From Klebsiella phage 150049: 64,000 nucleotides of DNA. The notes below the pieces were generated by a model. It saw nothing but the letters and a program-made list of their open reading frames with translations. It made no database searches and was not told the origin of the DNA. Position 1 is the first letter of the stretch. Each line of letters opens with the position of its first letter. This document shows positions 8,327 to 60,760 of the stretch, in pieces. A program made the position numbers and the translations under genes. The stretch lies in the sequence record OP045498.1. The stretch is one strand, 5' to 3'.

Positions 8327-9070
8327 ATCTGCGATTCCTTATAATGTATAAGTTTACCGCCGATAGGCTTTAAGATGTTCCCTAATTTTTAAAGAGCGTG
8401 GCGGTAAACTTCCCCGCCGTTGTAATCTGGCCTTTCGTTTCCGTCTTGCCGTCCTACGAGATAAATAATAGCAAATTAAGCGAAAGAGACAAGCGTATTT
8501 TTGTAAAGAAGTGTAAAGACAAACGCCACCGCACCACGTCCAGCGGCGCACTAAATTTAATGAAACGGGCGCGCGAATAACACCAAAACAACCATTTTAG
8601 CAAGTAATTTTTTCATTTATATCTGCTCTAGGGTACTTGACAAAATCTAAAATCCTCGTGGTGACGATAACGGCTAGTAGGCAATGCACTTGCCTAGCTT
8701 TTCCTTTGATGCGCTTAGAATCGCTTACAGAGCGTTTTAGACCCTGTTAATAACTTATACAAAAAGCAAAAATGAAATTTAATGAGTTATCCACTTGATT
8801 TTTCAAAAAAGTATTTTCTGCTGTTATTTTTCATTGACAAATAAGTTTAGACGTGCATTGATTGGTTAGCAGACTAATAATCCCTAGGATGATAATCACG
8901 CTGGTGGATTGTAACAGCCGAAATAGTTAGCAGACTATTAATACTCTAAAAACCTATTAGCCAACTAACTATTTCATATTATATAATATACTTATAAATT
9001 AAAGAGAAATAATAACTATAAGAAACTATCGGCTAAGTAAGAACCACTATCATTTAGGTTATTCACAAAG

Positions 9071-9129
9071 TTATCCACAGCACAAAATAACTTGACGCAA
9101 TAGGCGACGTTTTGGTGACTTATCCACAG
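9071..9129 (+). promoter_or_regulatory. two consensus DnaA boxes (TTATCCACA)
   Basis: Boxes at 9071-9079 and 9121-9129, plus a TTATCCACT copy near 8786. Confidence 0.5.
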
Positions 9130-9151
9130 ACTTATATACAGGTTATCCTAC

Positions 9152-13796: not shown

Positions 13797-14148
13797 GATT
13801 TTCCTAGAAACTTAGGAGTCTACTAGAAAGTGTTGTGCCATCCTAGGAAGAGCGGCGGCAACAAGTGTATCATCTTGAATGTAAATTATGTGGACAAAAG
13901 TTTTACCTTTTATTTAAATATAAGATCCCCCAATCTCGTAAGTCTGCTGCTCTAGGCGTTCAAGATCTGTATGCTAATCCCGTGATAACTGCTGCAGAAT
14001 ACATCCTAACGCCAGAGGCGCTGGTGTACTCTTCGAGTTGGGATAGCAATAATCTTGTTGCCTAGAGCTAAAAACAGAAGTTGTTTTTAATCTATGAGAT
14101 TATTATAACATGTGCCTTAATGAGTTGTCAAGAAGATTTTGTTAACGT

Positions 14149-33504: not shown

Positions 33505-33867
33505 AATTGAAAACCATTGAGGAGTAGCGAACTCTCTACACTAGAAGCTTGCATGCTCATACCTAGTGATTAGACCTAGCAAATAGGCGCTACAAGTAAC
33601 GACCCTAAGTGGTAGACTCAAACAGACAATGATTTTCAATTGTGGCGGCTCTCCGAAACTCATCACACTAACAACTAGTTGATTACTTCTGGATTCTCGC
33701 CCAGAAAATTCTCTAGAAAGGTGCACCGTTACTCTTTGAGCCATTGATGATGGGATGGTCTCTCATCCCCACTAACTACTTAATCCTTACGATTCGTCGG
33801 TTAGCACGAGCAGCAACCCTTCATATATAATTTATAGTGCCCAGAAGGTCATTAGAAGCACTTTATC

Positions 33868-33999
33868 AAGAAGTAGAAGGACTCGAACCTTCAAGAGATA
33901 GACCATTTATCTCAGCCTCGTTTTCGGGTATCTTATGAGGAGTGGATGTTCCCCTTACGCCCTTTAGGAAGCCCCGTCTACCGATTCCGGCATACTTCA
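33868..33999 (-). ncRNA. aberrant ~132-nt tRNA-like element (possible interrupted or decayed tRNA)
   Basis: Perfect D-arm CCCG GAATCGGTAGA CGGG and perfect T-arm GAAGG TTCGAGT CCTTC with pairing acceptor arms TGAAGTA/TACTTCT, but about 80 nt between D- and T-arms and no CCA. Confidence 0.3.
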
Positions 34000-34030
34000 A
34001 GATTCTGCTAGTCCGAGTCATGCTCTAGCA

Positions 34031-35233: not shown

Positions 35234-35560
35234 AAAATCTTTTAGTTTACTAAGGCTATTAGCTCGGTGTGCGTAATACCCTCGGCAATTAGCCATGCGA
35301 GGATACCCGCTCTCCACAAACCCGATACACTATTCAGTTGCCGCTGAATCTAGTGGACTAATCTAGAACTTCTTGCAAAGTATCCCCCGCCATTAGGGGT
35401 CTAATTGCAACCGTGCTTTTTGGCAGCCAGTCCTAGGTCGAGCTAATACCTTAGTGAACTAAATTGATGGATATCAGACTAATTTTGCTACGGCGTTTAT
35501 CCTGAGGATCTCTTTTTCGGTAGCTCTGCTAGTGTAGACGTCATACACCTGATATCTAGG

Positions 35561-35640
35561 CAGCTATTTTCACATCAATTTATATAAATATTATAACAAG
35601 AAATTAAGCATCAAGCAAGTACATTTTTAGCAATTTCTTG
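35561..35640 (-). promoter_or_regulatory. early promoter cassette
   Basis: Conserved cassette upstream of CDS 35611-35970. Confidence 0.5.
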
Positions 35641-37030: not shown

Positions 37031-37272
37031 TAATAAATTTACTTATTGCGTAGGCCACCTCACGCTTCAAACGCTCTGCTGACAAAGAAGTTTGCGAGAC
37101 TTCTCTTAAATGCCAGAATAGACCCGCCGATCTATCGGAACCTACTCAATAAGTAAACTTTCGTTTACCTACACCTACCTGGTCGGGAGGATTTTCAGCG
37201 ACTAGAACCGGCCGGAAACTCATCGCCTTGTTTATCTAGGAGTCCGTTCTCTAGGAAGCAGAAACCTAAATT

Positions 37273-37346: not shown

Positions 37347-37355
37347 ATAATAAGT

Positions 37356-37477
37356 CAATCTAGGCAGGACTTGAACCTGCTATCACTTGTGCGGATTTAC
37401 GAGAACCATTCTTTCACTCGAATCGAACGAGCTTCTACCCTCGGCAAGCTGGTGTCCCCTCTCCACCACGCTAGAAT
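37356..37477 (-). ncRNA. aberrant ~122-nt tRNA-like element with two T-arm-like hairpins
   Basis: GCAGG TTCAAGT CCTGC and GCTCG TTCGATT CGAGT hairpins; acceptor-like arms ATTCTAG/CTAGATT pair 6/7; no canonical cloverleaf. Confidence 0.25.
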
Positions 37478-37549
37478 GTTTGTTAATGAATAGAGTCCGG
37501 TGTAGCAGTCCGTAAGGGTGCACCTACTGTAGCCTTTACTCTATTTGTT

Positions 37550-38105: not shown

Positions 38106-38207
38106 ATCTATTTCCTCAGTTATTAATGAAAATGGTATCTGTGACTGAATTCGATATCAGTAATGATAGCTGGTTGGCTACCGGTTTACTTAACTCTACA
38201 CAGAATA

Positions 38208-40731: not shown

Positions 40732-40917
40732 TTAGCCTCTCTCAATGTCTAGACAAATTGCATATTCAGGGTTGATACCAGTACCTTTACATGTAGGACA
40801 TTCCCATTCTCTACAGAAAATATCCCCAGGCTCTGCATCATCCTGCCTACCACCACCATGACAGTCCTTACACCGACATTCTTCTAATGCTTTCTTCATT
40901 TCATAGAATCTAGACAT
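40732..40917 (-). CDS. zinc-ribbon small protein
   Basis: CRCKDCHGG ... CPTCKG. Confidence 0.4.
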   Translation of the reverse strand: MSRFYEMKKALEECRCKDCHGGGRQDDAEPGDIFCREWECPTCKGTGINPEYAICLDIERG

Positions 40918-40935
40918 ATAGTCTCCTAGTTAATT

Positions 40936-41012
40936 GGTGGCTCCCGGAGGATTCGAACCTACCTACCTTTCGCTTATGAGGCGACGGCTCATACCAAATG
41001 AGCTTGAGAACC
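40936..41012 (-). tRNA. tRNA-Met (CAT), third CAT tRNA
   Basis: D-arm GCTC ATTTGGTAT GAGC; anticodon loop CTCATAA. Confidence 0.6.
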
Positions 41013-41017
41013 AAATT

Positions 41018-41111
41018 TGGAGGAAGATGCCAGACTCGAACTGGCACACCGTGTCTCCACAGCTACTGGCTGTTTAGCAAACAGCTCCCTTACCTTTAGG
41101 GTTAATCTTCC
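41018..41111 (-). tRNA. tRNA-Ser (GCT), class II
   Basis: Perfect acceptor GGAAGAT/ATCTTCC; anticodon arm GCTGT TTGCTAA ACAGC; long variable arm. Confidence 0.75.
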
Positions 41112-41112
41112 A

Positions 41113-41175
41113 AATTTATGAATATATTATACAGAAAATTTCGGCATTAAGCAAGTGAAATTTTACTGAACATTG
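41113..41175 (-). promoter_or_regulatory. early promoter cassette driving the tRNA cluster (no RBS or ATG)
   Basis: Cassette directly upstream of the tRNA-Ser(GCT) 5' end. Confidence 0.5.
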
Positions 41176-41459
41176 CACTGATATACCTGTTTGATACGTG
41201 TCACTGACTTCTTAGTTGGGTTGATAGAAGAACCCTGCCACCAACGTGACTCTGAGCTAAGAACAGCACTAGGAACAGCCTGCTCTTTTGGCAGAACAAT
41301 ATCAAAACACTGTTCACCCATATTATCTTTAATGTGTGACCAAATATCCAAAGTAAATCGTTCTAACTTATTACAAACCTGAACTTGACAAAGTTCCTGT
41401 TGCGGAGCAGCAAATACAGAAGTAGATACTAGAGTCAATGCAAGTACAATGCGTTTCAT
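41163..41459 (-). CDS. secreted small protein
   Basis: Signal peptide MKRIVLALTLVSTSVFAAP; its 3' end overlaps the cassette 41113-41175. Confidence 0.45.
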   Translation of the reverse strand: MKRIVLALTLVSTSVFAAPQQELCQVQVCNKLERFTLDIWSHIKDNMGEQCFDIVLPKEQAVPSAVLSSESRWWQGSSINPTKKSVTRIKQVYQCNVQ

Positions 41460-41530
41460 GTTTGATTCCTCTCTCGAATTTATAAATATATTATACAGAA
41501 ATTTTCTATATTAAGCAAGTGAAAATTTCT
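41460..41530 (-). promoter_or_regulatory. early promoter cassette inside an 18-bp perfect inverted repeat
   Basis: TATTATACAGAAATTTTC / GAAAATTTCTGTATAATA flank the -35 TTGCTT. Confidence 0.55.
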
Positions 41531-41534
41531 GTAT

Positions 41535-41565
41535 AATAGCCCTCTAAGCGAGGGCTATAACTACT
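41535..41565 (-). terminator. hairpin after pnuC
   Basis: TAGCCCTC GCTTA GAGGGCTA. Confidence 0.4.
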
Positions 41566-42258
41566 TTATTTGTTAACGCGTACAAAGTATCCTTTATAAG
41601 CTCCAAGAATAGAGTTGCCTAAGAATACTAGCCACATTGCTAGGATTGCGTAAGATGCACCTGTAGATTGAGCAGTTACAAGCCAAATGTACACAGTACC
41701 AATGTTAATAGCAATCCAAATCAGCCATTGTTCAGCATATTGTTTGACCATAAGCCACATAGCAATCACACTACCAACCGCAGTAAATGCGTCAAGCATT
41801 GGGAATGGATCAGCGGTAGTAGCAAGGAAGCTGCCATATCCTAAAGTAGCTACTGCTAGAACCCCTAGAGTCAGCAAAGCTTGAGCTTTGCTCAGAATCT
41901 TAGTTGGAACATCTGGCAGATTACTTGGCTTATTTTTATGCCATAAGTACATTCCATAAAACTGCATAGGAACATAGTATAGCAGGTTTAGTGCAGCGTT
42001 ACCATAAAGATCTGCATTTAAAGCCGTAATACCATAGGTAAGAACTCCAACTAAGCCCCAAATATAGTTGGAAACACGTCCTTTTGCAACCAGAATAACA
42101 CAAACCACGTTGGTTATTGCAGTAGCCCAATCTAGAGCTGTACCATTATAGTTTGCTAAACTAATAAAGGCGACTGCTATAAACAGCCACAGATATTCCA
42201 AAGGTTTCCAGTTTTTAAAGTCATTTACAAGATAGTTAGTCATATTAAAACTCTCCAA
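41566..42258 (-). CDS. pnuC: PnuC-family nicotinamide riboside transporter
   Basis: 230 aa, about 7 TM helices, W/Y-rich PnuC-like pattern; adjacent to the nadR-like gene. Confidence 0.65.
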   Translation of the reverse strand: MESFNMTNYLVNDFKNWKPLEYLWLFIAVAFISLANYNGTALDWATAITNVVCVILVAKGRVSNYIWGLVGVLTYGITALNADLYGNAALNLLYYVPMQFYGMYLWHKNKPSNLPDVPTKILSKAQALLTLGVLAVATLGYGSFLATTADPFPMLDAFTAVGSVIAMWLMVKQYAEQWLIWIAINIGTVYIWLVTAQSTGASYAILAMWLVFLGNSILGAYKGYFVRVNK

Positions 42259-45308: not shown

Positions 45309-46253
45309 TTACTTGTTACGCATATCCATGATCATTTGACCATCGTAGCCAGTACCGACAACAGTCTGTGGTACACCACCTTGGTATTTTTCAGCACGAA
45401 GCATTTCAACTTCCAGCTGCTTCCAACGAATCATTTCAGGAGTAATGGTACGTTGCAGAGCGGCGTTAGCTTCAGCTTCTTTCTTAGCTGCGTACAGTTT
45501 AGCATCTGCGTCACGTTCGTTAGCTACTGCCATGTTTTCACGAGCGGAACGATCTGCCTCAGCTTGCTTAACTTTCTGCTGTGCTTCTTGTTCAACACGA
45601 GCCAGTTCAGCTTTTGCAGCGTTAACTTGTTCTTCACGAACTTTGGTGTTCTGTACCTGTTCCATGATTACCGGTGGCAGAGTAATATCCTGAAGGAATA
45701 CTTGCTTAACGGTGTAACCATAAGGACGCGCATACTCTTCTACTTCTTGCTGAATAGCGGTTTGCAGTTGAGCCTGAATCTTAGCGTCGAACAGATCTTG
45801 TGCTTTTGGTACAGACTTACCAAACTCACGAATCGTAGACAGCATCTTCTCTTCAACGTACTTGTTCAGAGCTTGATCCTGAGTACCTGCGTTAACACGG
45901 TTCATAGGAGCTTTAGCACCATCAAACTGCAACATAACGGTAATGTCAACAGTAGACTTAAACTTATCCTGGCTAGGAACCTGAAGTTTATCCAGTTTCA
46001 TGGAAATATCTTTCGTACTAAAAGTATCAAAAGAAGCAAATGGGTTAACAATATGGAAGCCTGGCAGTACAGGGTTCGGGCTAACTTTACCCAGGAAGGT
46101 TTGAGTCTTAACAGTACCATCCTGAACAACTGTGTAGGAATTGAGAGCCAGAATAAGAGCGCCAAGACCAACTACAGCACCAACACCCCAACGTTTAATA
46201 GTACGAATTACTTTTTGATCGGAAGTCAGTTCTTTAGTGTTTTTAGTAAACAT
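45309..46253 (-). CDS. SPFH/band-7 (prohibitin/HflC-like) membrane protein
   Basis: N-terminal TM then a PHB-like domain and coiled coil. Confidence 0.6.
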   Translation of the reverse strand: MFTKNTKELTSDQKVIRTIKRWGVGAVVGLGALILALNSYTVVQDGTVKTQTFLGKVSPNPVLPGFHIVNPFASFDTFSTKDISMKLDKLQVPSQDKFKSTVDITVMLQFDGAKAPMNRVNAGTQDQALNKYVEEKMLSTIREFGKSVPKAQDLFDAKIQAQLQTAIQQEVEEYARPYGYTVKQVFLQDITLPPVIMEQVQNTKVREEQVNAAKAELARVEQEAQQKVKQAEADRSARENMAVANERDADAKLYAAKKEAEANAALQRTITPEMIRWKQLEVEMLRAEKYQGGVPQTVVGTGYDGQMIMDMRNK

Positions 46254-46264
46254 ATATTTCCTTA

Positions 46265-46465
46265 TTATTTAGAAGAGTTAGCTACTACAGTTACTTTAGT
46301 TGCAGAAATAAACAGGCTAGCATCCACAGCAAATTCAGGAGCTTTGATATCTCCGTTATGAAATATGACTATACCGGAGACTACTTCAAATGCTAGCGCT
46401 GTAACATCGGTGGTATTTACTTGTGAATGTTCACCTACTACTTTTACTATATATCGTGTTTTCAC
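46265..46465 (-). CDS. hypothetical small protein
   Basis: ORF. Confidence 0.35.
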   Translation of the reverse strand: MKTRYIVKVVGEHSQVNTTDVTALAFEVVSGIVIFHNGDIKAPEFAVDASLFISATKVTVVANSSK

Positions 46466-46491
46466 TTTATTTTCCTAGCAGTTAATAAAAT

Positions 46492-46566
46492 TGGCCGAGG
46501 TGACAGGATTCGAACCTGCATAAAGGAATTTAGAAGACTCCTGCCTATCCCTTAGACTACACCCCG
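46492..46566 (-). tRNA. tRNA-Arg (TCT)
   Basis: T-arm GCAGG TTCGAAT CCTGT; anticodon loop CTTCTAA. Confidence 0.75.
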
Positions 46567-46569
46567 TTT

Positions 46570-47640
46570 AGGTATTTTTAAGAACTCTTATAAAAGCTCT
46601 TAAAGATACCCGACGGTAGGTAGGGTCAGCCCCCTCAGATTAAGCTCTGCAGCCCTTCCGTCAGACAATATCTTCCAGTTTAAGTCAGGGTGACTTTGTG
46701 GTTATGTTCTCCGTATGTGAAGAACTCGGTTAGGCTTAGGTCATGACTCCCAGCCTACTGCTGCCGCTCAACAGGAATTATCGCGAATTACCTGTACTAT
46801 TGGGCACCATTAGTGCCATCTCTCATGTCAGCGTTTCCCACTCTCATATTCACGCGGTCTGTTAGAATCGCACCTCCGATTTTCGATGCGAAGCTGGATG
46901 CCTAGTCTCAGGTTAAACGGGGCACACACTAGGCAGTGATCCCGAGTTCCGAGTTTGGTTGAGGCCGTCAGGTTTCCTCGTGGTTTAGCTGTTTCGATTC
47001 TAACCTAATACTGATCAGGTGGCGTACCTCCTGAACCGTCATAGTATGTACTCCAGCAGCGAATGCTTATCCGGTATAAGCCCGAGTTATCCGATTCTTT
47101 CCAGAAGGAGCAGTAAAGCTCAATGTCAGCCTGTGAGCATCTGGCAGTGTTATCACATAAGTCAGTTCGACACCCCACATTTTAGTGCCTGGTAGATCCC
47201 GAATGAAGCCCTCAGTCGTTAGACCTCCATCATTCATCAAAGATTTACGCTACCCACTATTCGATGGACAATCGCCGCATTGTGGTATACATACGTTTTC
47301 ACTTGCATCCTAGACGGGTCAGCGTTGAAAGTTATATGGGTTTCTCAAGCCCAACCTTCAGTCTTCTACCCCTGGGACACGCACCGTATTTCACACTGTG
47401 CCTAGCTCCTGTTGAGACCCATCGTTTTGTATAAATTAGAGAAGAGTTTAGAGGAGAGGTTTCAGACGCCTCATTTTACAAGAAGTCTCGAACCTATATT
47501 CGTTACTCTAGTCACTTGGCCGGATATACCGGACTGGACTCGGAACTCTAACAGGTGATCATTCTTAACCCACCGACTCTATTCAGTGTCAGAAGCTATC
47601 ACTAGGTGAATCGCTAAAGCTCACTCAGCGTAATCGGCTC
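46570..47640 (-). ncRNA. 1.07 kb ORF-free, GC-enriched segment transcribed from an early cassette promoter into tRNA-Arg; candidate large structured ncRNA (alternatively a decayed gene)
   Basis: No ORF of 60 aa or more in any frame; GC visibly higher than flanks; cassette promoter at 47641-47700 lacks RBS and ATG and points into this segment. Confidence 0.3.
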
Positions 47641-47700
47641 GCTGTTCTCTAATTTATGAATCTATTATACAGAATTTTGGAACGTTTAGCAAATCAATTT
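47641..47700 (-). promoter_or_regulatory. early promoter cassette (no downstream ORF)
   Basis: Minus strand TTGCTA-17-TATAAT then AGATTCATAAATTAGAGAACAGC. Confidence 0.5.
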
Positions 47701-48144
47701 TTAATTAAATTCGCCAGCAACCTGAGCAGCAATGCCACCATCGTAACGACCAGGAAACTCTTCCTTAATCGCTTTCATCAGCATACCCTTTGTAATCCCA
47801 GGATTCAACTTAACTAATTCTGCAAAGTATTTGCGAATCTCAGAATCAGATAACTGAGGCGGCAGATACTGTTGTAGCCATTTGTTCAGTATATATTCAT
47901 ACTGAGCAGACTGCAAGCTATAATTATCAAGGTCTTGACCGTGAAGTTTAGCTTTTGTCTGATTAATGCTTTTCAGTTGAGCTTTTAGATAAGATACAAA
48001 CTGTTCAGAAGTAATGAAGTCTTTATCAACACGCTGAAGATCTCCGATTATAGTCTGGTAGCTTTTAGCTACTTCTTTATCAGAACCATCAACCTTAGAT
48101 TCCTGCAAAGCCCTACGCAAAACATCTAGAATATTCTCTTCCAT
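47701..48144 (-). CDS. GatB/YqeY-domain protein
   Basis: C-terminal ELVKLNPGITKGMLMKAIKEEFPGRYDGGIAAQVAGEF resembles the YqeY family. Confidence 0.5.
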   Translation of the reverse strand: MEENILDVLRRALQESKVDGSDKEVAKSYQTIIGDLQRVDKDFITSEQFVSYLKAQLKSINQTKAKLHGQDLDNYSLQSAQYEYILNKWLQQYLPPQLSDSEIRKYFAELVKLNPGITKGMLMKAIKEEFPGRYDGGIAAQVAGEFN

Positions 48145-48382: not shown

Positions 48383-48832
48383 TTAAGTTTTCTTAACCAC
48401 AGGCTTGTAGAACGTATGGCCTTGAATCTTCGTTGTTTTCTTAAACTTCTTTGTCCAGTACGGTTTATCTTTACCACTATGGAAGTATAACGCTCCATGT
48501 GTTGGATCTTGTGGTAAATCAACGTAGTATATCACTCTAGCTAAATTCTTAGCAACTTGCCAAGCCTCATCGGTTTTATCAACTTTTGGTCTCTTGGCCA
48601 CCCAAGAGAACTGGTTAGACTGATATACTACTTTACAGTAAGAATCAGGAAAAGTACCAGAGTTAACACGGTTTTTAGTAACCTGTGCAACTGCGATCAT
48701 TCCTTTAGTGCCCTCACCTCGTGCTTCGAAGTAGATATTTTTTGCAATGCAATCAATCTGCTTTGAGTCGTAGGTCGCATGACTATTGAAGCTATAGGTT
48801 AGGGCAGCTATTAAAAGCAAAGCTGCCTTCAT
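48383..48832 (-). CDS. secreted SleB-like cell-wall hydrolase (Hydrolase_2 family)
   Basis: Signal peptide; NIYFEARGE signature; start ATG 48832 with GGAG RBS. Confidence 0.6.
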   Translation of the reverse strand: MKAALLLIAALTYSFNSHATYDSKQIDCIAKNIYFEARGEGTKGMIAVAQVTKNRVNSGTFPDSYCKVVYQSNQFSWVAKRPKVDKTDEAWQVAKNLARVIYYVDLPQDPTHGALYFHSGKDKPYWTKKFKKTTKIQGHTFYKPVVKKT

Positions 48833-48837
48833 TTTAT

Positions 48838-49155
48838 TTACTCCGGCCAATCGTACTCAATACGATTAGGGCTTTCTTGATACCCTTCGTCTAAGAGATC
48901 ATTACGCATGGTCTCTTTAGCTACTGGGTTCGAGGTTACTAGTACCACTTTCTTGGGTCTCTGACCAAATTCTAGGAGTAAACGAAGAATTTGATAACCT
49001 TCCATACCATCTACAGCCAGATCGTTATCCATATAAACGAAATGACCTGTGGTATCGGTTTTATTCAGAAACTCAACAGCGGCTTCTGGGGTTCGAATGA
49101 TAATATCCATCCCATGCAGGTCACGAACATCATCAATCAGAATATGAAAAATCAT
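48838..49155 (-). CDS. hypothetical protein
   Basis: ORF with cassette upstream. Confidence 0.45.
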   Translation of the reverse strand: MIFHILIDDVRDLHGMDIIIRTPEAAVEFLNKTDTTGHFVYMDNDLAVDGMEGYQILRLLLEFGQRPKKVVLVTSNPVAKETMRNDLLDEGYQESPNRIEYDWPE

Positions 49156-60634: not shown

Positions 60635-60760
60635 TCCTATAGTGTACTTCGCTAACAGAGGATCAACAAAAAGATCTTGTTTATCAACTTACAAATATAT
60701 TATACCAATATATACGGGAGAAAGCAACTACAATTTTAAATAAGCCTATGATATTGCATT
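60635..60760 (-). promoter_or_regulatory. early promoter cassette (phoH)
   Basis: Minus strand TTGCTT-17-TATAAT. Confidence 0.5.

Follow-up and report, generated by a model that had tools for sequence, protein, structure and literature searches.

A predicted large structured RNA between an early promoter and tRNA-Arg in an EPS7-like phage, a probable orthologue of phage T5 RNAX

We analysed a stretch of 64,000 nucleotides (nt) from Klebsiella phage 150049 (OP045498.1; hereafter the window), in which a long interval devoid of protein-coding genes lies between a YqeY-like gene and a tRNA-Arg gene and probably encodes a large non-coding RNA (ncRNA) related to RNAX of phage T5. The interval, together with its flanking DNA, shows 99.9% identity to Escherichia/Salmonella phage EPS7 (Epseptimavirus, Demerecviridae, T5-like), and we refer to the predicted product as the EPS7 RNA. 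In the EPS7 RefSeq record, the region from the 'tRNA amidotransferase' (YqeY-like) gene to the small open reading frame (ORF) past tRNA-Arg is unannotated, the tRNA included. ARAGORN identified 29 tRNA genes in the window, and the locus comprises the following features:

47701–48144, minus strand: YqeY-like ORF, upstream of the promoter
47664–47692, minus strand: sigma-70 early promoter of T5 type (TTGCTA-17-TATAAT, by consensus scan)
46567–47657, minus strand: predicted primary ncRNA of ~1,091 nt (synteny and homology with T5 rnaX, ORF-free, no Rfam match)
46492–46566, minus strand: tRNA-Arg(UCU), immediately 3' of the RNA (ARAGORN; Rfam tRNA, 49.3 bits)
46265–46465, minus strand: ORF of 66 amino acids (aa), downstream of tRNA-Arg
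45309–46253, minus strand: SPFH/Band-7 gene (Pfam, 70 bits)

No ORF of at least 60 aa starting with ATG, GTG or TTG overlaps positions 46466–47700, the longest being 58 and 57 aa, and the six frames carry 15–33 stops each in ~364 codons. At 1,235 nt this is the largest ORF-free gap of the window, followed by one of 562 nt. The GC content of the segment is 0.45–0.50, compared with 0.36–0.38 in both flanks and a window mean of 0.40. The promoter has its −35 element TTGCTA at 47687–47692 and its −10 element TATAAT at 47664–47669 on the minus strand, with an A-rich stretch upstream and the conserved initial transcribed motif (A)TTCATAAATT downstream. The window contains 22 copies of the cassette TATAATANATTCATAAATT, where chance alone would give 0.37, and nearly all copies lead within 10–25 nt to a ribosome-binding site (RBS) of the GAGAGGA type and an ATG. 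The copy at 47651–47669 runs into AGAGAACAGCGAGCCGAUUACGCUG, where both RBS and ATG are absent. The promoter is kept at all homologous loci, and its counterpart is P16-17 in the T5 record. We infer that the RNA begins 7 nt past the −10 box with the A of CATAAATT (A47657) and that it ends where RNase P processes tRNA-Arg; a transcript coordinate q corresponds to window position 47704 − q. No minus-strand terminator-like site was found between the promoter and tRNA-Arg, nor was any promoter cassette or minus-strand terminator found among the RNA, tRNA-Arg, the 66-aa ORF and the SPFH gene. An earlier note, made from the letters of this DNA and its ORFs, had pointed out the lack of ORFs of 60 codons or more, a GC content above that of the flanks, an early-cassette promoter aimed into the segment without RBS or ATG, and tRNA-Arg(TCT) on the same strand at the 3' end, all of which our analysis bears out. 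The segment it delimited also stands, and its limits could be refined to an RNA proper running from ~47657 to 46567 and a promoter region at 47658–47700.

Five further cassette copies lack RBS and ATG (41113–41131, 35577–35595, 14089–14107, 8982–9000 and 60686–60704). One of the five abuts tRNA-Ser, and one drives an RNA2H-like sequence together with two tRNA-Ala genes. The second-largest ORF-free gap of the window (8581–9142, 562 nt, GC content 0.33) contains the copy at 8982.

The key to the identity of the segment is the GenBank record of T5 (AY543070), which annotates at 40848–41566 a misc_RNA 'rnaX' (RNAX) of 719 nt as a 'stable RNA with unknown functions', the biggest of eight stable RNAs in the T5 tRNA region. 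Promoter P16-17, rnaX and tRNA-Arg follow each other on one strand in T5, in the same synteny as in the window, and in both phages the series of early promoter, RNA and tRNA-Arg(UCU) comes after a YqeY-like gene. The interval is a mosaic, of which the promoter, a 36-nt block and a 3' domain of ~276 nt are universal, and the predicted RNA can be divided from 5' to 3' into these parts:

47431–47657, minus strand: helix P1 and domain A (11 long forms folded with RNAalifold; pairs counted and compared with controls)
47179–47430, minus strand: domain B, a nested multi-helix region (helices 11–17 of alignment A4)
47143–47178, minus strand: invariant 36-nt block GUGGGGUGUCGAACUGACUUAUGUGAUAACACUGCC (helix 18 of A4; predicted 8-bp hairpin with a 19-nt loop)
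47101–47142, minus strand: slot filled by 42 unrelated nt in EPS7 and loci L007 and L008, where most relatives have a tRNA or a tRNA-like element (alignment)
46843–47100, minus strand: central domain with the conserved GGAAAGAAUCGGAUAACU, its other modules differing among phages
46567–46842, minus strand: universal 3' domain of ~276 nt (alignment A2, covariance model R1, alignment A7)

By blastn, T5 RNAX positions 31–66, 350–517 and 677–719 align to window positions 47143–47178, 46673–46842 and 46567–46609, corresponding to the 36-nt block, the 3' domain and a terminal hairpin; the central motifs are common to both RNAs as well. The 3' domains share ~79% identity over 170 nt, and a covariance model of the 3' core (R1, described below) reaches 113 bits in the window compared with 99 bits within T5 rnaX. 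The segment thus matches the RNAX family in its position and strand between promoter and tRNA-Arg, in its homology of sequence and structure, and in being non-coding. Judged by sequence, it is the unannotated EPS7 orthologue of T5 RNAX. The two RNAs also differ: the EPS7 RNA is ~370 nt longer, T5 RNAX is devoid of domains A and B (the distance from the transcription start to the end of the 36-nt block is 78 nt in T5 and 520 nt in EPS7), and T5 has an internal tRNA-like element, which EPS7 does not. In addition, T5 carries an insertion of ~90 nt in the 3' core that is missing from EPS7. This insertion is flanked by the direct repeat AGUCACCUUGACUUAAACUGGAA, itself an invariant motif, and occurs in T5 (our locus L004, 2801–3170) and in metagenome contig L064 (7214–7586); Klebsiella loci L006, L072 and L074 have an insert of 100–130 nt at the same spot. 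A literature search, in which the T5 genome paper was not covered, returned no paper on RNAX or on a large RNA of T5-like phages. To our knowledge of the literature searched, RNAX was catalogued two decades ago and its structure and function have never been characterised; it is also absent from Rfam.

The segment matches 522 phage records, and a neighbouring T5-type hydrolase (at least 60% identity) is found in 518. The comparison drew on 52 unique homologous loci taken from isolate genomes, from IMG/VR and from metagenome contigs. When IMG/VR was scanned with the YqeY-like protein as anchor, only 26–27 loci turned up, most of them isolate genomes that the set already contained. Across the family the RNA measures 0.7–1.3 kb and occurs in T5-like phages of Escherichia, Salmonella, Klebsiella, Enterobacter and Erwinia. 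It is retained without an adjacent tRNA-Arg in Klebsiella phages, where other small coding sequences (CDSs) come after the RNA, and in phages with ORF insertions: a 169-aa ORF splits the RNA from tRNA-Arg in TrudiRoth, HMD-P2, S126 and KKP_3711. Homing-endonuclease-type ORFs have entered either at the junction of the terminal hairpin and tRNA-Arg or in place of the 5' domains. ORFs of 158–176 aa, labelled HNH endonuclease in some records, sit exactly at module boundaries of the RNA in relatives (L002 3176–3685, L003 3114–3623, L005 973–1482, L094 8056–8532, and L010 and L078 2604–3086), and the ORF inserted in TrudiRoth had no match in Pfam. Two groups of candidate members were discarded. Aeromonas phage PhAER-3 came up through the hydrolase gene but lacks any homologue of the RNA core. 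Four pattern matches in metagenome-assembled genomes (MAGs) of bacteria have only a 20-base pattern in common with the family and are chance matches; R1 found no match in the Aeromonas phage or in the four MAG contigs.

The predicted secondary structure is supported by compensatory substitutions along the whole RNA. In the 3' domain (A2, 35 sequences, RNAalifold), 18 of the 44 pairs showed both-sided compensatory changes and 96.7% of the cells were paired. After shuffling, 11.9 ± 1.6 pairs covaried, none of 500 shuffles reaching 18, and only 2–5 did so with slid partners. When RNAalifold was applied to domain A in a MAFFT alignment of 26 sequences, invariant helices were all that it recovered, the variable hairpins being non-homologous swapped modules, and we therefore restricted the test of the 5' half to the 11 truly homologous long forms. 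There, RNAalifold gave 84 pairs, 24 of them compensatory, compared with 11.7 ± 2.1 after shuffling (0/500) and 4–13 with slid partners. The covariance model R1 of the universal 3' core, comprising 95 positions and 17 pairs, matches a single site in the window (46666–46760, 113 bits) and recovers sequences outside its seed: Eos (79.5 bits), Enterobacter phage KKP_3711 (62 bits), Klebsiella phages (55–58 bits), S126 (46 bits) and Erwinia phage Key (45 bits). The match in KKP_3711 falls in that phage's own CDS-free gap of 954 nt. In the core aligned by the model (A7, 31 distinct sequences, including the non-seed Eos, KKP_3711, Key and S126), 12 of 17 pairs covary, a conservative count of further pair types gives 32 against 22.8 ± 1.6 in shuffled alignments, and every measure exceeds 500 of 500 shuffles. 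For the 3' domain, the 5' half and this core alike, the number of covarying pairs also lies above every slid control. Pairing also depends on the strand: 95–97% on the minus strand and 84–89% on the plus strand, a difference due to G·U pairs that agrees with the direction of the promoter. These comparisons show a predicted secondary structure kept by compensatory substitutions across 35–43 sampled homologues. The covariation among homologues that the earlier note had asked for was thus found, and its proposal of a large structured ncRNA is upheld by the compensatory, strand-specific pairing along the whole length and by the RNAX annotation in T5.

The 5' end of the predicted transcript, AUAAAUUAGAGAA (47645–47657), is complementary to UUCUCUAAUUUAU (47431–47443), forming P1, which spans ~215 nt and encloses the variable domain A of ~200 nt in most phages other than T5. 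In T5, P1 is a plain hairpin without domain A. Variants of P1 are compensated in loci L073 and L029, and U·G wobbles occur in the Klebsiella forms. Within domain A are the invariant hairpin CAGCG-AGCCGAUUA-CGCUG (47626–47644), the invariant UGAAUAGAGUCGGUG (47571–47585) and swappable hairpin modules, whose closing stems remain complementary after the swap. Domain B is limited to the long forms, namely EPS7-like phages, S126, Eos and the Klebsiella phages (Sugarlandviruses), the latter having 70–77% overall identity to EPS7. It includes the hairpin GGG-CUUGAGAAA-CCC (47338–47352) and several both-sided changes, such as GGG/CCC to GAG/CUC.

All 52 unique loci, among them that of Erwinia phage Key and those of 11 metagenome contigs, carry the 36-nt block, which occurs once in the window, where the chance expectation is 0. 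In relatives such as L004 and L033, the 3' GCC(R) of the block hairpin doubles as the first 3–4 nt of the acceptor stem of the tRNA-like element. The block hairpin and this acceptor stem are mutually exclusive because both use GCC(R), and the exclusive pairings may constitute a switch or a shield against RNase P. The element in the adjacent slot scores in the Rfam tRNA model 50.2 bits in Key, 38.3 in T5, 33.0 in S126, 30.5 in Uniso31, 29.3 in TrudiRoth and 27.6 in Kpn2-P1. Its score in Key is that of a bona fide tRNA-Pro; in the relatives its acceptor and T arms are intact and its anticodon arm is degenerate. The slot of EPS7 (47101–47142) gave no tRNA-like match with Rfam at E ≤ 10 or with relaxed ARAGORN. 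The labels 'tRNA-Sec' and 'tRNA-OTHER' in some records arise from this slot element. Klebsiella records L006, L074, L075 and L076 place strings of small hypothetical CDSs and 'tRNA-OTHER' over the RNA, where sister records are blank; such CDSs are likely to be spurious.

The central region is too modular for a single alignment. Its hairpin GCUUAU-ACCGG-AUAAGC (47065–47081) exists in four covarying versions (GCUUA/UAAGC, GCUUU/AAAGC, GGUUC/GAACC and GCUUC/GAAGC), and another hairpin, UCGCA...UGCGA (46866–46893), alternates between UCGCA/UGCGA and UCACA/UGUGA. The invariant AAACCAC (within 46976–46988) can pair with GUGG of AGUGGGAAA (46834–46842); this CCAC...GUGG pairing is a candidate only, covariation being uninformative for invariant sequences. 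In the 3' domain, a freely covarying stem closes the invariant loop GGAGUCAUGACC (46739–46750), which holds the 8-nt palindrome GUCAUGAC and is identical in 43 of 43 matches. A covarying hairpin (46706–46725), the invariant AUAACCAC (46698–46705), the hairpin AGUCACCCUGACU (46683–46695) and the invariant AACUGGAAGAUA (46669–46680) follow; AGUCACCYUGACU and AACUGGAA are invariant, too. The RNA ends with an AU-rich terminal hairpin of 17 bp (46571–46611) directly before tRNA-Arg. The invariant loops could be sites of tertiary, intermolecular (kissing) or protein contacts.

GOLLD and ROOL are striking large phage RNAs whose function is unexplained and which are mostly found in hosts that are hard to manipulate. 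At gathering threshold, Rfam 15 (cmscan) reported only tRNAs in the window; over 46400–47800 no model other than tRNA matched at E ≤ 10, and only tRNAs were found at E ≤ 1 in seven homologous loci. Candidates considered and rejected for want of a model match were GOLLD (RF01998), ROOL (RF03087), HEARO (RF02033), OLE, group I and II introns, RNase P RNA and tmRNA, and relaxed ARAGORN gave nothing credible on the segment, calling tmRNA only at a meaningless threshold. Membership of GOLLD, ROOL or HEARO, which the earlier note had cited as large phage RNAs typically found beside tRNA genes, is not supported, as no match appeared even at E ≤ 10. The RNAX family nevertheless resembles these RNAs in general layout. 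GOLLD has a universal 3' region and a 5' region of weaker conservation, sometimes with tRNAs in the linker, and is found in phage tRNA islands (PMC12286853). RNAX shares with it a conserved 3' part, a variable 5' part, a tRNA or tRNA-like element midway in most homologues and the tRNA island, which is a resemblance and no sign of homology; both are structured phage RNAs of more than 700 nt within or next to tRNA islands. In contrast, the Rfam model of GOLLD fails on RNAX, and GOLLD occurs in Lactobacillales, mycobacterial or marine phages, whereas RNAX occurs in enterobacterial T5-like phages. ROOL, HEARO, OLE and raiA are likewise large with structure supported by covariation, ROOL also in the context of phages and tRNA islands, but they have other motifs and helices, and the window RNA has no Rfam match.

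A further comparison is offered by the small stable RNAs of T5 (RNAI, RNAIII, RNAIV, RNA1, RNA2, RNA2H and RNA3), which share the neighbourhood, the strand and early promoters without RBS with RNAX; some of them are tRNA-like, as is the element within most RNAX homologues. However, they measure 73–172 nt compared with 700–1,300 nt for the RNAX family, and none has sequence similarity to the segment, which RNAX alone matches. Counterparts of five of them lie in the window at 79–96% identity:

33864–34001, minus strand: counterpart of T5 RNA1, unannotated
35317–35448, minus strand: counterpart of T5 RNA2H, unannotated
37047–37145, minus strand: counterpart of T5 RNAIV, unannotated
37354–37478, minus strand: counterpart of T5 RNA2, unannotated
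38133–38205, minus strand: counterpart of T5 RNA3, unannotated

None of these five reached an Rfam gathering score.

Taken together, it is highly probable that the segment encodes the EPS7 orthologue of RNAX, a non-coding, multi-domain RNA of ~1.09 kb transcribed from a T5-type early promoter lacking RBS and ATG. T5-type early promoters are among the strongest promoter types. Host sigma-70 RNA polymerase would start early transcription on the minus strand near A47657, and the RNA would be co-transcribed with tRNA-Arg and probably also with the 66-aa ORF and the SPFH/Band-7 gene. Cleavage by RNase P at tRNA-Arg would produce the 3' end, which the terminal 17-bp hairpin might shield; such protection would explain the stability noted in the T5 record. 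The tRNA-like element, where present, may serve as an additional site of processing or recognition. As to function, a trans-acting structural RNA of the general GOLLD/ROOL kind would be our guess by analogy, though one slightly more apt to be wrong than right. The universal 3' core and the invariant loops, above all the palindromic GUCAUGAC, would then make tertiary, intermolecular or protein contacts, the variable modules being peripheral, and the role could plausibly be tied to the tRNA supply of the phage or to countering host defences that target tRNAs. For a homo-oligomeric nanocage like those of GOLLD and ROOL, the only lead is this palindromic loop with its covarying closing stem. We hold it to be fairly unlikely, yet worth stating, that the RNAX family is a giant ornate phage RNA of a third class, independent of GOLLD and ROOL, that self-assembles into a homo-oligomeric particle through GUCAUGAC and other invariant motifs, escorts tRNAs and acts in trans early in infection. 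If so, the RNA might protect or deliver phage tRNAs or blunt tRNA-directed defences, and a giant ornate RNA would be available in a classic, genetically tractable group of coliphages.

Several observations speak against the picture of one long, structured EPS7 RNA. T5 is without the whole 5' domain and many modules are swapped or absent elsewhere, so that the EPS7 RNA is universal only in part. Only 11 sequences, belonging to about four lineages, entered the test of the 5' half, and the shuffle control takes no account of phylogeny. The folding energy of the whole RNA barely exceeds that of shuffled sequences (z = −1.25, 20 shuffles; plus strand, +0.11), with short variable modules mostly between z = −3 and +1; we relied on covariation because single-sequence thermodynamics was uninformative. 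A helix joining the 5' and 3' halves was not found, and the mature product may for this reason consist of two or more pieces. The status of 'stable RNA' comes from the GenBank note for T5, the EPS7 transcript being a prediction from sequence. The likeness to GOLLD and ROOL is architectural only, with no Rfam match, and oligomerisation, partners and function are conjectural.

The lack of a long-range helix between the halves bears directly on whether the transcript might be cleaved, at the tRNA-like element among other places, into several smaller stable RNAs instead of forming a single species. This possibility, unlikely in our estimate, differs from the RNAX reading in the mature product only, so that the two overlap and our confidence in it does not add to that in the others. 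It would suit the independent gain, loss and swapping of modules, the tRNA-like element that most relatives have midway along the RNA, and the presence in the T5 tRNA region of seven further small stable RNAs, some tRNA-like and with counterparts in the window. On the other hand, long-range stems enclose hundreds of nt (~215 nt within P1, and nested helices in domain B and the 3' domain), EPS7 has no internal tRNA-like signal for cutting, and T5 is annotated with a single species of 719 nt. Another alternative, which we regard as improbable, assigns the RNA no function in trans and sees in it a cis-acting 5' leader or spacer that controls how tRNA-Arg or the mRNA downstream is processed, how stable it is or how much of it is made. 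The absence of any cassette or minus-strand terminator from the RNA through the SPFH gene would fit such a leader, as would the equal layout in T5, where only 34 nt separate tRNA-Arg from T5.080. Nevertheless, the RNA is kept in TrudiRoth, HMD-P2, S126 and KKP_3711 despite the intervening 169-aa ORF, and in Klebsiella phages it precedes small CDSs instead of tRNA-Arg. A multi-domain fold of 0.7–1.3 kb with invariant loops also exceeds the needs of known tRNA leaders, and the T5 record lists RNAX as a stable RNA species in its own right.

The tRNA island could also hint at an anti-defence decoy, an RNA that soaks up or inhibits tRNA-targeting nucleases or RNA-sensing defences. The tRNAs of T5-family phages are known to counter PARIS and retron/Septu-type defences (PMC11464382, PMC11555353), and the RNA sits in the tRNA island of this very family. 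A strong early promoter and a tRNA-like element whose acceptor and T arms are intact and whose anticodon arm is degenerate would accord with this role, which is compatible with the structural claims made above. However, EPS7 and its close relatives lack the tRNA-like element while the remainder is conserved, and the universal 3' domain is unlike tRNA, making the decoy quite unlikely. A site for replication, recombination, nicking or packaging at the level of DNA might be suspected from the GC-rich, atypical composition and from T5, whose DNA is nicked site-specifically and has a major interruption annotated ~1 kb downstream. Yet a dedicated promoter aims into the segment, the conservation of pairing relies on G·U and clearly favours the transcribed strand, and the T5 record annotates an RNA product, leaving such an element very improbable. 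The least credible explanation is a decayed protein gene, such as the homing-endonuclease relic that the earlier note had offered as its alternative, or junk without RNA function. Homing-endonuclease-type ORFs do enter the edges of the locus in relatives, and the region is highly mosaic. Nonetheless, a check for protein remnants came back empty: six-frame scans of the segment gave no hit in Pfam (E ≤ 1) or PHROGs (E ≤ 0.1), and tblastn with nine ORFs from the relatives' loci gave none of significance, the best having E = 0.04 on the wrong strand. With 15–33 stops per frame, and with strand-specific compensatory covariation and invariant islands extending to Erwinia and Enterobacter phages, which would be unexpected in decay, this explanation is effectively refuted.

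The RNAX family is missing from Rfam and is unannotated in almost all of the ~520 matching phage records, many of which place spurious small CDSs, 'tRNA-Sec' or 'tRNA-OTHER' over the RNA. Defining the family would correct the annotation in hundreds of genomes of therapeutic-candidate phages. Natural variants are at hand for its dissection, including T5 without the 5' domains, EPS7 without the tRNA-like module and others with inserts, and the role of giant tRNA-adjacent phage RNAs becomes testable through E. coli genetics.

Labels of the neighbouring genes vary among records. The gene at 47701–48144 is called 'tRNA amidotransferase' or 'recombination-related exonuclease', its YqeY match being below threshold (25.4 versus 27 bits). 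We considered its product as a tRNA-binding partner of the RNA and dropped the idea, given this sub-threshold match and the fact that the gene is not beside the RNA in Klebsiella phages. The product of 45309–46253, SPFH/Band-7 by Pfam, is called 'lipoprotein' in records, with labels inconsistent from one to another. Finally, 48383–48850 (minus strand) is a single ORF of 155 aa in the window, and relatives annotate a single cell-wall hydrolase of 450 nt. The EPS7 RefSeq record splits the counterpart into two 'endolysin' CDSs (AGC_0091 and AGC_0092), which is probably an annotation or sequencing artefact of that record.

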